A DNA stretch of 64,000 bases. It comes from Actinomycetota bacterium (lineage in GTDB: Bacteria > Actinomycetota > Actinomycetes > Actinomycetales > Microbacteriaceae). The DNA is taken from the NCBI GenBank assembly GCA_947450345.1, contig CANFVD010000001.1, positions 15,936 to 79,935 on the forward strand, read 5' to 3'. Positions 22,587 through 28,061 of the stretch are shown here, piece by piece. A model generated the notes under the pieces. The model was not told the DNA's origin and made no database searches. It was given only the letters and a program-made list of their open reading frames with translations. The first letter of the stretch is position 1, and every line of letters starts with the position of its first letter. The position numbers and the translations under genes are program-made.

Positions 22587-23642
22587 TTAGTCCTCCGTGA
22601 GGATGCCCGTAATTTCTTCGTTGACCAATCGCAGGTTCTCCACCAGAAAACCCTCGAGCACCCAGTTCTTGGTTGAGGGTCGGCTTAGTCGGATGGGTTG
22701 CGTGAGCACGGGAAGGTCGTGTGTCTCCGGGTGAGGAACGTTTATGGCCTCGAGCCCGGTGTCGCGCACCACAATGCGTAGGTCATGTCCGGCGCTTTTG
22801 AGCTCGGCAGCGATTTCGGCGATGTTGGCATCGTTCACGAGGGACTCGTCGTAGTGGTCGCGCACGCCTCGGGAGATGCCAATCGTTCTCGTGGTGACAA
22901 CGGCGAGACGCGCCAACAGGTTTGACAGCTCATCGACCGCGGGCCGGTGCTTGTTGCGTCGAATCATGTTGAACCGCAGGCTCTCGCTGAGTGCGTTGAC
23001 CCGATCGAGGGCCGCGTTGAGTTCGGCACGGAGTCCGCGCGCACGCCAGTAGAGCGTGTTGAGTACCTCGGGGCTCGTGCGTCGAGACAGTACCGCGCCG
23101 AGGTCTTCCAGCAACTGAGCAATGTCACCACCCAGTGTGGCGACGGCGGTGCGTGCCGGAGCGAGGGCGACCGGCGGCACAATCACCGCGTTGACGATGA
23201 TGCCGATGACGGCGCCCAGGATTGTTTCGAGGATGCGCACGAGAGCGTAATCGGGCGCCGCGGCACCGATCACAATCGAGAGCATGGCGCTAATGGCGAT
23301 TTGGTTGGCGGTGGCCGGTGTGAGTTTGAACGCCCATCCCGTGATGATCGCCGCAGCGATGGCGACGAGGACCAACCACGAGGGCGATCCAAAGGCCAAG
23401 CTTGCTCCCAGGGCAATTGCCACGCCAATCACGGTGGCCGTGGACCTCTCGAGGGCTTTGCCGAGTGAGGCGTTCACGCTGGGCTGCACCACGATGATGG
23501 CGGCGATGGCCGCGAACACGGGCGTGTCGGTCTGGAATAGCGGAACGGCAATCAACCAGGCAGCTACGGCGGCGCCGATTGACTTGAGCACCTGCAGAAA
23601 GGGGATGCGTCGTTTCGCCCGTACGTTTGCTCGGATGCTCAC
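22587..23642 (-). CDS. FUSC / aromatic-acid-exporter-like integral membrane protein
   Basis: 351 aa. N-terminal half has 5-6 TM helices (LQVLKSIGAAVAAWLIAVPLF...). C-terminal half is a soluble helical domain. GTG start (23640-23642) overlaps the dnaE2 TGA (23639-23641). Confidence 0.7.
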   Translation of the reverse strand: MSIRANVRAKRRIPFLQVLKSIGAAVAAWLIAVPLFQTDTPVFAAIAAIIVVQPSVNASLGKALERSTATVIGVAIALGASLAFGSPSWLVLVAIAAAIITGWAFKLTPATANQIAISAMLSIVIGAAAPDYALVRILETILGAVIGIIVNAVIVPPVALAPARTAVATLGGDIAQLLEDLGAVLSRRTSPEVLNTLYWRARGLRAELNAALDRVNALSESLRFNMIRRNKHRPAVDELSNLLARLAVVTTRTIGISRGVRDHYDESLVNDANIAEIAAELKSAGHDLRIVVRDTGLEAINVPHPETHDLPVLTQPIRLSRPSTKNWVLEGFLVENLRLVNEEITGILTED

Positions 23643-26600
23643 GGTTTTACGGTAGTCGCGCCGCCGGAGTACTCGTGGCGGCGCGCGCAGAACTCAGCCC
23701 AGAGCTGTTTGAGATCCCACGCCTGGATGGCTTCGATTGAAATGCCTCGTTCACCGGTGCGGCGGGTGCGGCCGCGAATCACCATGAGTTTGGTGCCGAA
23801 CAACAGGGATCCCGTGGCCTGCTGCGCTTCTTCGAAGAAGGTCGCGTCGGCGCATCCGCTGCCGTCGTCGAGGCTGATAAACACGACGCGTTTGCCCGAA
23901 CGCATGGGCGGAGTTTGTGTGGCGATGCGCACGCCGGCCACTAACACCTCGGTTTTACTCCGCAGTGCCAACAGTTGGCTTGCTGGAGTGACGCCCATGT
24001 CGTCAAGCAGGGGCCGGTAGGCCTCGATGAGATGCTCCGAGGCATCCATGTCGAGTACCCCGAGCTCGACCCGAGCGCGGTCGGCGGTCGTGAACTGGGG
24101 GTTTCCGCGCGGAATCGCGTGCCGGTCGTCGATGGTGAAGTTGAGCTGATTGTCGGGGTCGCTGCGCGCGGGGCGCATGGCGGTGAGCTGGCGTACGAAA
24201 GCGATCACATCGCCGCGTGTGGGGAGTGACGTCGCTTCTGGCGAGCCGGCCAACGCGTCAAGTGCCCCCACGAGGGCCAGTCGTTGCATGAGCGCGCGCG
24301 AGGGTCGGGCGCGCTCGTACAGGTCGGTGATGCCCGTGAACGGCTGACCGGCCAGCAGTCGTGCCAGTTCGGCCTCGCTGATGCCGTGCACATCGCGCAG
24401 CGAGAGGCGAATGCCGAGGGTGCCCCCGCGCAGGCGCTCCACGCGGTACTCGTCGATACTGAGGTTGGCATCCAGCGGCAAGATGGGCACGCCCATGCGG
24501 CGCGCTTCGGCCAGCAGGAGGCGTCGGGGATACATGCCCGGATCGTGCGTGAGGATTCCCGCGAGGAACTCTGCCGGATAGTGCGTCTTGAGCCAAGCGC
24601 TCTGATACGTGGGCAGCGCGAAAGCCGCACCGTGTGCTTTGCAAAACCCGAACGAACCAAAACCCTTAAGCACCGCCCAGATGCGCTCGATGTCGGCGTC
24701 GGTGAACAGGCGTTTGCCGGTTTCGGGGTCGCGTCGCTCCGCCGTGCGTTGGCGAAACGCGCGTTCGATTGACGCGGTTGACTTCTCCATGGCGCGCCGT
24801 AGCTCGTCTGCCTCGGCCAGCGTCACGCCCATGCACTCGTGCAGGATGCGCAGAATGTGCTCGTGGTAGATGACCACGCCGTAGCTGTCACGCAGAAAAG
24901 AGCGAAAGCGTGGGTGCAGATAGTTGGGGGCGGTAAAGCCGTGTTTGGCATCGAGGAAGGGTGCCACCATGTTGCCCTTCATGGGCCCGGGGCGAAACAG
25001 CGAGATATCGGCGATGAGGTCGTTGTACTCATCGGGCTGCATCTTGCCGATCAGTTCGCGTTGCCCGGGGCTCTCAATCTGGAACATGCCGAGCGTGTGG
25101 CCGGTGCGAATGTTGGCGAACGTGGCCTCGTCGTCGTGGGGGATGGCGTCGAGCTCGATAAGCCCGTTGGGCTTGATGTACGGGGCGTCACTGGGCAGCT
25201 TGCCCACCTCGGCCGCGTGCGGGCCGTGCATGCGCTGAATCTCGCGCAGGGTGTACGAGAGCGTCGACTGCATGCGCACGCCCAGTACGTCGAGTTTGAG
25301 CAGACCCACGTCATCGATGTCGTCCTTGTCGAACTGACTCATGGGCAGTCCCATGCCGGAGGGTTGCATGGGGCTCAGGTTGTATAGCTCGTTGTTGCCG
25401 AGGATTACGCCACACGGGTGCATGGAGACGTGGCGGGGGAGTCGGTCGAGGCGTTCGGCCACGTCGACGAGCAACTCGAGGCGGGCATCCTCCTCGAGCA
25501 TGGTGACGAACTCACGCATCTCGGGCTTGGTGTCGAGTGCGCGCCGAAAGTCCCGGGCGTTGAAGCGCCAGATGTTCTTGGCGACAAAGCCAATCTGCTC
25601 GGGGGAGAGGCCCAGGGCCATGCCGGCATCGCGCGCGGCACCACGTGCGCGATAGGTGTTCTGCATCGCCATCAGGCTCACGCGGGTACTGCCGTAGCGC
25701 TCAAAGATGGCGCGGTAGACCTCGTGGCGCCTGGCCGACTCCACGTCGATGTCGATGTCGGGCAGTGTCTCGCGCTTGTTGCCCAGGAAGCGCTCAAACA
25801 GCAGGTCGTGCTCGAGGGGGTCGACGTTGCTGATGCGCAGTAGGTACGTGACGATACTGCCCGCGCCGCTGCCGCGCGCCTGGTTGCGGATGCCCATGCG
25901 CCGCATGAGCGCCGACACGTCGGCCACGGTGAGAAAGTACGAGGCAAAGCCAAAGTCATAAATGGTGTTCAGCTCGGTGTCGAGGCGTTCGGTGATGCGC
26001 CGCATCTCGGTGGCTCCCGCGTAGGGGTAGCGCTCACCGATGGCTGCTTCGGTGCTCTGGCGCAGAACTGCGGCGGGGTCACCGCTCAGGCCAATGACAT
26101 CGTTCTCGGGAATCTTGGCCTGACGCCAGCCAAGATCGGTCTCGGGGTCGAGTACGCAGCGCAGGGCGAGGCGTTCGCCGGCCGCGAGCATGCGGTGCGC
26201 GGCTCCCTGATCGAGTCGAGAGGCACGCGCCACGCGCAGGGCGATCGCGTGCATTTCGGCCGGCGTCTTGAGCCACGCCTGGCCGTTGGGTTGTGGCGTG
26301 AACTGGCCCAACGCGCGCAGCATCGCCGCGGCATCCAACACGTCGCCGGTGACGGCATCGTCGGCCTCGAGGTAGCGTGCGGCATTACTGAGCACCGCGG
26401 GTGTCTCGGTGTCGTGAGCGAGCTCGAGCATGGCCACCGCGTGGCGCAGGCTGGCGGTGGTGCCCGGTGCGGTGTCGTGGCACACCACCTCGAGGGCGAT
26501 GGCGCCGGGGAGTGTGTGGGTCCACCAGGCGAGCAGTTCACGCGCCCGTTCGGCCTCACCGCGGGCGAGCGCCTGCCCCACGTCGGAAGCGGGGCCGAGG

Positions 26601-27007
26601 AGGATAGTGACGGTGATGCCGTCGGGACCACGAAGCAGGGGCCTCAGACGCGTGCGGGCGAGCGCCGGGGGCGAACTGCGCGTGCTGCGTGCGTGGGCCG
26701 CGGTGATGGCTCGCGCCATGCTTGCCCACCCGCGCCCCTCGCAGTGCCCGTGGGCAAGTAGGGTGAGTCGACCCGCCGGCCGGCCGTCGCTCTCGCGCAA
26801 CGCGAGGTCTACCCCCACAATCGGCTGAAGTCCGCTGGCCACGCACGCGCGAATGTGCCGCACGGCACCGTAGAGTCCGTCGCGGTCGGTGATGGCCGCC
26901 GCCCACGCGCCCGCGGCCTTCTGCGCCGCCACGAGCGCCTCGGGGCGGGCGGTGCCGTAGTGCGCCGAGAACGCCGAGGCGACGTGCAGGTGGGTGAAGT
27001 CGGGCAT
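23639..27007 (-). CDS. dnaE2: error-prone DNA polymerase III alpha-like subunit DnaE2
   Basis: ORF 23639..27481, trimmed to ATG 27007 (MPDFTHLHVASAFSAHYGTARPE, PHP domain start). 1122 aa. ...FCKAHGAAFALPTYQSAWLKTHYPAEF..., OB fold near the C-terminus. The 158-codon upstream extension is Arg/Pro/Ser-rich and overlaps a better ORF. Confidence 0.9.
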   Translation of the reverse strand: MPDFTHLHVASAFSAHYGTARPEALVAAQKAAGAWAAAITDRDGLYGAVRHIRACVASGLQPIVGVDLALRESDGRPAGRLTLLAHGHCEGRGWASMARAITAAHARSTRSSPPALARTRLRPLLRGPDGITVTILLGPASDVGQALARGEAERARELLAWWTHTLPGAIALEVVCHDTAPGTTASLRHAVAMLELAHDTETPAVLSNAARYLEADDAVTGDVLDAAAMLRALGQFTPQPNGQAWLKTPAEMHAIALRVARASRLDQGAAHRMLAAGERLALRCVLDPETDLGWRQAKIPENDVIGLSGDPAAVLRQSTEAAIGERYPYAGATEMRRITERLDTELNTIYDFGFASYFLTVADVSALMRRMGIRNQARGSGAGSIVTYLLRISNVDPLEHDLLFERFLGNKRETLPDIDIDVESARRHEVYRAIFERYGSTRVSLMAMQNTYRARGAARDAGMALGLSPEQIGFVAKNIWRFNARDFRRALDTKPEMREFVTMLEEDARLELLVDVAERLDRLPRHVSMHPCGVILGNNELYNLSPMQPSGMGLPMSQFDKDDIDDVGLLKLDVLGVRMQSTLSYTLREIQRMHGPHAAEVGKLPSDAPYIKPNGLIELDAIPHDDEATFANIRTGHTLGMFQIESPGQRELIGKMQPDEYNDLIADISLFRPGPMKGNMVAPFLDAKHGFTAPNYLHPRFRSFLRDSYGVVIYHEHILRILHECMGVTLAEADELRRAMEKSTASIERAFRQRTAERRDPETGKRLFTDADIERIWAVLKGFGSFGFCKAHGAAFALPTYQSAWLKTHYPAEFLAGILTHDPGMYPRRLLLAEARRMGVPILPLDANLSIDEYRVERLRGGTLGIRLSLRDVHGISEAELARLLAGQPFTGITDLYERARPSRALMQRLALVGALDALAGSPEATSLPTRGDVIAFVRQLTAMRPARSDPDNQLNFTIDDRHAIPRGNPQFTTADRARVELGVLDMDASEHLIEAYRPLLDDMGVTPASQLLALRSKTEVLVAGVRIATQTPPMRSGKRVVFISLDDGSGCADATFFEEAQQATGSLLFGTKLMVIRGRTRRTGERGISIEAIQAWDLKQLWAEFCARRHEYSGGATTVKP

Positions 27008-27015
27008 GCGTGGCG

Positions 27016-27333
27016 CTACGCAAACAGTCTCTGGTCGAGCTCGACCGTGGAGGCCCCGACGAGACGCCAGCCGTCTCCGTGTTGGGCGAGGTCGTACACG
27101 CCGTCGTCGCGCGGGGCTCCCGACGTGAGGGCAATCGCATCCACGCGCCACGTGGGCACGTCGAGGGGAAGTGTGCGGCCCCGGGTGACGCGGTCGCTCT
27201 GCTGCCACCAGGCACGGCGGCTCAGCCACGGTTCGGGCGCGCTCACTATGGCGTAGCTGATGCCGCGCCAGCGAAATGAGAGGGGAACTCCTCCGGCCGA
27301 GAGATCCACTCCGACGGGTTCGTCGATGTACAT
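27016..27333 (-). CDS. conserved-looking hypothetical protein, 105 aa, Trp-rich, first gene of the dnaE2 transcription unit
   Basis: ATG 27333 has GAGGAG 6 nt upstream. Third codon positions are strongly G/C. 6 Trp. No TM helix or signal peptide. Stop is 8 nt before the dnaE2 ATG. Confidence 0.7.
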   Translation of the reverse strand: MYIDEPVGVDLSAGGVPLSFRWRGISYAIVSAPEPWLSRRAWWQQSDRVTRGRTLPLDVPTWRVDAIALTSGAPRDDGVYDLAQHGDGWRLVGASTVELDQRLFA

Positions 27334-27351
27334 GGAGGCTCCTCGTGAAAT

Positions 27352-27367
27352 TCGAATATATCTTCGA
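27352..27367 (-). promoter_or_regulatory. LexA (SOS) box-like palindrome
   Basis: Plus strand reads TCGAATATATCTTCGA. The mycobacterial/actinobacterial consensus is TCGAAC-N4-GTTCGA, and both half-sites differ only at the innermost base. It lies 19-34 nt upstream of ATG 27333. Confidence 0.55.
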
Positions 27368-27372
27368 ATACC

Positions 27373-27394
27373 ACGTTAGAAAAAACCACGGACA
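27373..27394 (-). promoter_or_regulatory. RecA-NDp / PafBC-type DNA-damage promoter-like motif
   Basis: Minus strand reads TGTCCGTG-GTTTTTTC-TAACGT. The motif described for mycobacteria is tTGTCRgtg-N8-TAnnnT; the single deviation is C for R. The -10-like hexamer ends 5 nt before the LexA-like box. Confidence 0.45.
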
Positions 27395-27426
27395 GCAAAG
27401 TGTGGAGGACAGGTTGAGGGTTGTTC

Positions 27427-27455
27427 GTTCGGGGAAGTTCGGAACGTCCCCGAAC
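27427..27455. repeat. 29-nt near-perfect palindrome
   Basis: GTTCGGGGAAGTTCGGAACGTCCCCGAAC. It matches its own reverse complement at 26 of 29 positions (two symmetric mismatches plus the central base). No flanking U tract. Confidence 0.7.
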
Positions 27456-27507
27456 TCATCTGCGCTGAAAATTAGGTTCAATCAAGATAATGTGAGCAGA
27501 GACGAGA

Positions 27508-27523
27508 GTGAAGAAATCTTCAC
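27508..27523. promoter_or_regulatory. 16-nt perfect palindrome upstream of the PH-SHOCT gene (candidate operator or 5'-UTR hairpin)
   Basis: GTGAAGA-AA-TCTTCAC, 20 nt upstream of ATG 27543. GATAAT (27485-27490) is a possible -10. Confidence 0.35.
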
Positions 27524-27542
27524 AAAACATAAGGGGAAAATT

Positions 27543-28061
27543 ATGGCGGGCGAGACACTGTGGGAGGGCGAACGGAATTCGCTCACGGCGGCAGCAACCG
27601 GGGGCAAGGTTGTATCGGAAAAATACCGACTTACCCCCGAATACATTTACGTCGAGCGGGGTCTGATTGGTTCTAAGGCTGATCAGTATCCGACTTGGGC
27701 AATACGAGATATCGACGTCACTTCCAGCCTCGTGCAGAAGGCCCGTAGCCTCTCCACACTTAAGGTCCATCTGCAACATGATGAATACACTGGGGCGGAT
27801 CAAGTCAACTTGGAAAACATCAGTGGTGGCAAAGAATTACGCGACACTCTCAACCGCATTGCAAATGAGGCACGACTACTTCGCCAGCAACAGTCACAGA
27901 CAGTCCACTACTCAGGTTCTGCCCCAATAGCCCAAGGGGCTCCCGCTTCACAAAGTGCTTTTGACCCAATTGAGCAACTAACAAAATTAGGGGATCTTCT
28001 ATCAAAGGGCCTTATTTCTCAGGAAGAATTTGACGCTCAAAAAGCAAAACTCCTTGGCTAG
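27543..28061 (+). CDS. bacterial PH domain (bPH_2/YdbT-like) protein with C-terminal SHOCT domain
   Basis: ORF 27276..28061, trimmed to ATG 27543 (AAGGGGA RBS). YRLTPEYIYVERGLIGSKADQYPTWAIRDIDVTSSLVQKARSLSTLKVHL resembles bPH_2. The C-terminal DPIEQLTKLGDLLSKGLISQEEFDAQKAKLLG is a typical SHOCT motif. GC is markedly lower than the flanks. Confidence 0.75.
   Translation: MAGETLWEGERNSLTAAATGGKVVSEKYRLTPEYIYVERGLIGSKADQYPTWAIRDIDVTSSLVQKARSLSTLKVHLQHDEYTGADQVNLENISGGKELRDTLNRIANEARLLRQQQSQTVHYSGSAPIAQGAPASQSAFDPIEQLTKLGDLLSKGLISQEEFDAQKAKLLG

Follow-up and report, generated by a model that had tools for sequence, protein, structure and literature searches.

The DUF6504-dnaE2 unit studied here is probably controlled by a single composite promoter with dual input, at which activation by PafBC and effective gating by LexA would both act on one operon, possibly with a FUSC-like gene at its end. 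Sequence comparison gives good support to both sites, to the recurrence of their variants before hallmark damage genes, to the encoding of both regulators by the genome, and to the conservation of the layout; where transcription starts, whether either protein occupies its site, and the AND logic are what we infer. The dual control by activation and repression proposed in a preliminary description of this DNA draws its support from the same comparison. Error-prone DnaE2 is the driver of mutagenesis after DNA damage, which in mycobacteria extends to drug resistance, so the timing of DnaE2 expression sets the mutation supply.

The window is the whole 64-kb stretch of DNA that was analysed, positions 15936-79935 of contig C1 in a 1.68-Mb assembly (96 contigs, 82.6% complete). 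The host is a MAG of an uncultured freshwater Microbacteriaceae. The nearest public records to the window are MAGs of uncultured freshwater Microbacteriaceae and one Aurantimicrobium MAG. The features of the promoter and its unit, in the direction of transcription, are as follows.

27412 to 27422, minus strand: upstream edge of the conserved promoter block, AACCCTCAACC, at a predicted position of about -46 to -56
27387 to 27394, minus strand: putative PafBC -26 element TGTCCGTG, with GTC at predicted -27 to -25
27373 to 27378, minus strand: -10 hexamer TAACGT, 8 nt downstream of the -26 element
27364 to 27366, minus strand: predicted transcription start, placed from the -10 geometry 7-9 nt after the hexamer
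27352 to 27367, minus strand: predicted LexA operator (SOS box) TCGAAGATATATTCGA, exact TCGAA-N6-TTCGA
27339 to 27344, minus strand: ribosome-binding site GAGGAG, 5 nt before the ATG
27016 to 27333, minus strand: ORF105, DUF6504 protein of 105 aa and first gene of the unit (Pfam PF20114, E = 1.6e-6)
23639 to 27007, minus strand: dnaE2, 1122 aa, with PHP, Pol III alpha, finger, HHH, and OB domains
22587 to 23642, minus strand: FUSC/ArAE-like membrane protein, whose GTG start overlaps the dnaE2 stop

Read 5' to 3' on the minus strand, TGTCCGTG (27394-27387) is followed by the spacer GTTTTTTC (27386-27379), TAACGT (27378-27373), GGTAT, and TCGAAGATATATTCGA (27367-27352). A further 18 nt, including GAGGAG (27344-27339), lead to the ATG at 27333-27331. 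The sequence and coordinates first reported for this stacked promoter agree with the minus strand letter for letter. The intergenic region before ORF105 covers 27334-27542; beyond it, from 27543, runs a divergent plus-strand gene whose product has bPH_2 and SHOCT domains.

The upstream element has the features of a PafBC promoter. Such promoters are hybrids that combine a canonical -10 hexamer with a -26 element and have no -35 element, and cryo-EM places the helix-turn-helix domain of PafB on the -26 element (-23 to -28), where it reads GTC (PMC8635444). By that definition (PMC8635444), the dnaE2-unit promoter has the sequence features of a PafBC hybrid, with a GTC-containing -26 element, an N8 spacer, a canonical TAnnnT -10, and no -35. 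When TAACGT is set at -12 to -7, GTC falls at -27 to -25, inside the -23 to -28 element of PMC8635444. A promoter scan of 27250-27650 found no -35/-10 consensus pair on either strand, and visual inspection of the bases 16-20 nt before TAACGT showed no likeness to TTGACA. This lack of a -35 element fits the expectation for a PafBC hybrid promoter. The preliminary description compared the element with the RecA-NDp motif tTGTCRgtg-N8-TAnnnT and reported one departure, C at the R position. That departure stands, but the count does not, as the weakly conserved base preceding TGTC is also off the motif (C, not T).

On the inferred start, the LexA box would extend from about -1 to +15, in agreement with the earlier proposal that it lies at or just downstream of +1. 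An SOS box likewise surrounds the start mapped for imuA' (Rv3395c) in Mycobacterium tuberculosis (PMC3381160). The box differs from TCGAAC-N4-GTTCGA at two positions, the innermost base of each half-site. These two mismatches are the ones first described, while the palindrome described with them is narrower than the 16-mer, which is palindromic in its 5-nt arms only.

Both motifs are rare in the window and recur at damage genes of the host. GTCNGTG-N8-TANNNT and TCGAA-N6-TTCGA each match once in the 64-kb window, in both cases at the dnaE2-unit promoter, against 0.18 and 0.08 matches expected from shuffled sequence. In the 1.68-Mb assembly, TCGAA-N6-TTCGA has four exact copies (0.87 +/- 0.85 in shuffles). 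Three of these precede the dnaE2 unit, recA (TCGAACAAATATTCGA), and lexA (TCGAATACCCTTTCGA), and the fourth falls within a transporter ORF. The lexA/LysM intergenic region also holds TCGAAGATATATTCGG, which is nearly a copy of the dnaE2 box. The innermost half-site base, off consensus in the dnaE2 box, varies at recA and lexA as well. PafBC-type elements precede recA, where CGTCCGTGGTTGCTCGTACGGT lies 152 nt before the ATG and reads as CGTCCGTG-GTTGCTCG-TACGGT, and radA, where TGTCGGTG-N8-TAAAGT lies 8 nt before the ATG. Both the recA element and that of the dnaE2 unit are of the GTCCGTGGTT variant, in which the R position is C. A weaker PafBC-type candidate, with the -10 sequence CACACT, is found before recN. 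The preliminary description had staked its reading on the host's SOS genes carrying the same variants, and they do, in the LexA-type boxes of recA and lexA and in the PafBC-type elements of recA and radA. A chance juxtaposition, or a pair of sites belonging to other regulators, might be suspected from two motifs that are both short and degenerate. We regard it as extremely improbable, given that each motif is unique in the window, that the same variants stand at recA, lexA, and radA, and that the layout is kept across families with positional specificity (see below).

Genome-wide, the two motifs behave differently in number. The PafBC-type pattern occurs six times in the assembly, compared to 8.2 +/- 3.2 in shuffles, and this count is not above chance. 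Five of the six copies are placed outside coding sequence, which makes up ~13% of the assembly (binomial P = 2e-4). Coding and non-coding placement was judged from flank GC and third-position GC content. A test based on open frames was dropped because, in a GC-rich genome, nearly everything falls in some long open frame. Support for the PafBC element is thus a matter of position and conservation, not of genome-wide count. Relaxed scans for a wider PafBC regulon returned candidates before holB-, clpX-, orn-, nrd-, ftsK-, and recN-like genes, none of them firm.

For LexA, a scan allowing up to three mismatches gave 1,283 matches and was too noisy, and the exact core and a family-derived weight matrix were used instead. 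With this matrix, the dnaE2 box scores 26.7 and the recA box 26.8 (best in the genome); the weight matrices include the dnaE2 site and those of recA, lexA, and radA, so the scores of these sites are circular and only the ranks of other matches are informative. The fourth-best LexA matrix match is GCGAACATACGTTCGA (contig C4:24910-24925), located 25 nt before the gene for a CoA-transferase subunit and flanked by more TTCGTA/ACGAAC repeats. Either LexA or some other regulator could use this site as its operator. The lexA/LysM intergenic region (contig C26:19234-19470) contains several TCGAA-type boxes, and a TTGACA-N17-TATATC promoter overlaps one of them.

Both regulators are encoded in the genome. 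The lexA gene is on contig C26, divergent from the LysM gene, and its product matches the LexA DNA-binding domain (E = 2.5e-20). An Ala-Gly (AAG) cleavage region and the Ser (GESM) and Lys (VKT) motifs are present, so by its predicted protein lexA is intact and its product cleavable. The pafB and pafC genes are a pair of neighbouring WYL genes on contig C7; PafB matches the PafBC structures 6sj9, 7p5x, and 9fnd with E-values from 3e-24 to 5e-23. In Mycobacterium smegmatis, PafB Arg46 and Arg50 read the guanines of GTC (PMC8635444). Host PafB (contig C7, L005:1009-2004) keeps Arg50 and has Lys at the Arg46 position. Among five genomes, Arg50 is invariant and position 46 is Lys in the host and G038 and Arg in G053, G009, and G011. 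Residue 46 has no clear pattern with the base after GTC (TGTCC vs. TGTCG) in these five genomes. With pafB and pafC encoded and the same element at recA and radA, the reading of the first element as PafBC-type (RecA-NDp) holds up. The second element is likewise supported as an actinobacterial LexA box, with lexA encoded, the same core at recA and lexA, and conservation before orthologs.

Conservation of the stacked layout was assessed before orthologs of ORF105. Among 81 Microbacteriaceae genomes, 16 (host included) have a DUF6504 homolog, and 15 of the loci have usable upstream sequence; in this set the promoter elements of locus L014 were assigned by eye. A LexA box lies a few tens of nucleotides before the start codon at all 15 loci, and TAnnnT lies 0-12 nt upstream of the box at all 15. 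TGTC at the exact N8 spacing is found in 13 of the 15 genera. The identical 16-mer TCGAAGATATATTCGA precedes the ortholog in two other genera, in which protein identity is only 44-48%. Four close relatives (88-99% protein identity) have an almost invariant block from 27422 to the ATG, and the DNA upstream of it is unalignable. At the Aurantimicrobium locus L025 the block is identical.

The upstream edge of this block, AACCCTCAACC, has four copies in the genome, and in three other genera a similar AACCTTCAACC precedes the -26 element by 15-34 nt. AACC(C/T)TCAACC was rejected as a regulon motif, since there are only four genome copies and they have no common theme. A 29-nt GAAC/GTTC palindrome lies at 27427-27455, just beyond the promoter block. 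In one relative (L028), an APP1-like gene adjoins the promoter block directly; in the window, a DUF1801 gene, the bPH_2-SHOCT gene, and the 29-nt palindrome intervene between the two. The segment 27423-28430 resembles an insertion that ends precisely where the promoter block begins.

Class-wide sampling of Actinomycetes gave a DUF6504 homolog in 89 of 151 genomes. At 29 of the best 30 class-wide loci there is a LexA box carrying 0-1 mismatches, preceded by a -10 hexamer at a distance of 6-10 nt. The stacked layout is present in ~40% of the other actinobacterial families sampled. Many orthologous promoters in other families also have TTGACG 19-20 nt upstream of the -10, and PafBC dependence may therefore not be absolute everywhere. 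When orthologous DUF6504 promoters with a LexA box and a -10 hexamer were pooled across Actinomycetes, 25 of 37 had GTC at precisely the PafBC offset, compared to 0-1 at each of 16 shifted offsets, in related genomes that are non-independent samples. On a diverged background, such positional specificity is hard to explain without selection.

These comparisons bear on whether the TGTC element is a PafBC site at all. An ordinary LexA-repressed promoter would account for the box and -10 that occur without TGTC at two of the 15 family loci (L020 and L021) and about half of the loci from other families, and the chance-level count of the PafBC pattern in the genome agrees with it. It is nevertheless very unlikely, because it leaves unexplained the preference of GTC for one offset, the same variant at recA, and the element at radA, and because there is no -35 here to support unaided initiation. 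Two overlapping promoters working as an OR gate are another arrangement to consider, one PafBC-dependent and the other a LexA-repressed sigma-A promoter with TATATT, in the box spacer, as its -10. The spacer GATATATT is -10-like and has a weak TTTTCT 17 nt upstream, and mycobacterial recA and imuA' each use two separate promoters. Most orthologous box spacers, however, are not -10-like (ACACAC, ACACCC, ACAGGT); the conserved element is instead the TAnnnT upstream of the box, and the promoter scan gave no -35/-10 pair. We give this arrangement a slim chance.

The preferred reading is the single composite promoter. Under this model, RNA polymerase with the housekeeping sigma factor (SigA) would be unable to use the promoter alone for want of a -35 element. 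PafBC activated by ssDNA would bind TGTCCGTG through PafB and adapt sigma to TAACGT, by the mechanism published as “sigma adaptation” (PMC8635444). A LexA dimer on TCGAAGATATATTCGA would cover about -1 to +15 and block initiation until its RecA-stimulated self-cleavage. The operon would then be expressed only when LexA is cleaved and PafBC is active, so that both damage sensors would be needed.

LexA might also bind and gate poorly, with PafBC dominant, the box only trimming basal or late expression, and no AND logic. There is a precedent in M. tuberculosis ruvC, where the SOS box is inside the RecA-NDp promoter and most induction is RecA-independent (PMC3381160); stacking alone is thus no proof that LexA gates PafBC. 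Against weak gating at the dnaE2 unit, the box scores level with that of recA, the best in the genome, is identical letter for letter in two other genera, and lies over the predicted start rather than beside it. Mycobacterial dnaE2 is moreover mainly SOS-dependent after UV (PMC8682763). We consider weak gating unlikely here, and effective gating at the composite promoter remains the probable reading.

The operon under this promoter differs from the canonical mutasome cassette in gene content. The dnaE2 gene starts 8 nt after the ORF105 stop, and the FUSC-like gene is probably co-transcribed because its GTG start overlaps the dnaE2 stop. ImuB was not found in the host genome (82.6% complete), where the sole IMS-domain match is DinB-like (contig C40, E = 1.3e-53). 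Three relatives with DUF6504-dnaE2 and 98-99% complete genomes (G009, G011, and G038) have no IMS match even at E <= 0.1. A canonical imuA'-imuB-dnaE2 cassette was not assigned, as no ImuB accompanies DnaE2 in the host or these three relatives. The possibility that DUF6504 is an ImuB fragment was raised by a match of the family model in the Caulobacter control genome, and it was rejected because almost all of the 102 DUF6504 homologs are free-standing proteins with lengths of 85-150 aa.

In the literature available for full-text search, no paper mentioned DUF6504. By its predicted boxes and gene order, conservation marks DUF6504 as a consistent SOS-regulon member adjoining dnaE2. In other actinobacterial families (L030, L057, and others in L033-L054), the operon consists of DUF6504, a SAV_6107-like HEPN protein, and dnaE2, and is LexA-controlled by predicted box. 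The C-terminus of ORF105 is DQRLFA; its subfamily has the tail [D/E]-x-x-L-F-A, which is absent from more distant DUF6504 proteins and resembles a beta-clamp-binding motif. More speculatively, the stacked promoter could be an ancient class-wide AND gate guarding a minimal mutasome, with DUF6504 replacing ImuA'/ImuB as the DnaE2 partner where ImuB is lacking. We offer this broader proposal tentatively and think it more doubtful than not.

Mycobacteria are already known to place mutasome genes under both SOS and PafBC, and their recA, imuA'B, and dnaE2 respond to the two pathways (PMC8682763). What is added here, by sequence comparison, is the arrangement in Microbacteriaceae, the tight stacking on a promoter without a -35, and its conservation before DUF6504-dnaE2 units in many families. 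Mycobacterial recA has P1 and P2, a PafBC-dependent RecA-NDp promoter and a LexA-repressed promoter (PMC8682763). It uses the same two regulators and the same two motif types, and host recA shares its layout, with the LexA box distal, the PafBC-type promoter proximal, and ~70 nt between them. In that two-promoter layout either pathway can induce, whereas at the dnaE2 unit the -10 hexamer and the LexA box of one promoter are 5 nt apart.

The mycobacterial imuA'-imuB/dnaE2 system is likewise an error-prone polymerase system under LexA and PafBC. Its imuA' has a putative PafBC site 166 nt upstream of the LexA site that gives a separate, ciprofloxacin-specific transcript (PMC8682763). In contrast to this distant site, the host has one stacked promoter, its first gene is DUF6504 rather than imuA', and imuB was not found in the host genome. 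M. tuberculosis ruvC and Rv2719c, as described in PMC3381160, also have both motif types at one promoter region, but the RecA-independent route is reported to be dominant there (PMC3381160), unlike in the model proposed for the host. The divergence of host lexA from the LysM gene also resembles that of M. tuberculosis lexA and Rv2719c.

A further parallel in promoter elements is with the PafBC promoters studied by cryo-EM, which have the same GTC -26 element, 8-nt spacer, and canonical -10 and no -35 (PMC8635444). The host differs from these in having C for G/A after GTC, Lys at the Arg46 position of PafB, and a LexA operator abutting the -10. Mycobacteria keep the SOS and PafBC inputs to their mutasome genes on separate promoters, with induction varying by type of damage. 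The stacked layout predicts a stricter rule than the mycobacterial one, in which both signals would be required at a single promoter. Its conservation in many actinobacterial families makes it a simple and testable model for how the SOS and PafBC pathways are integrated.
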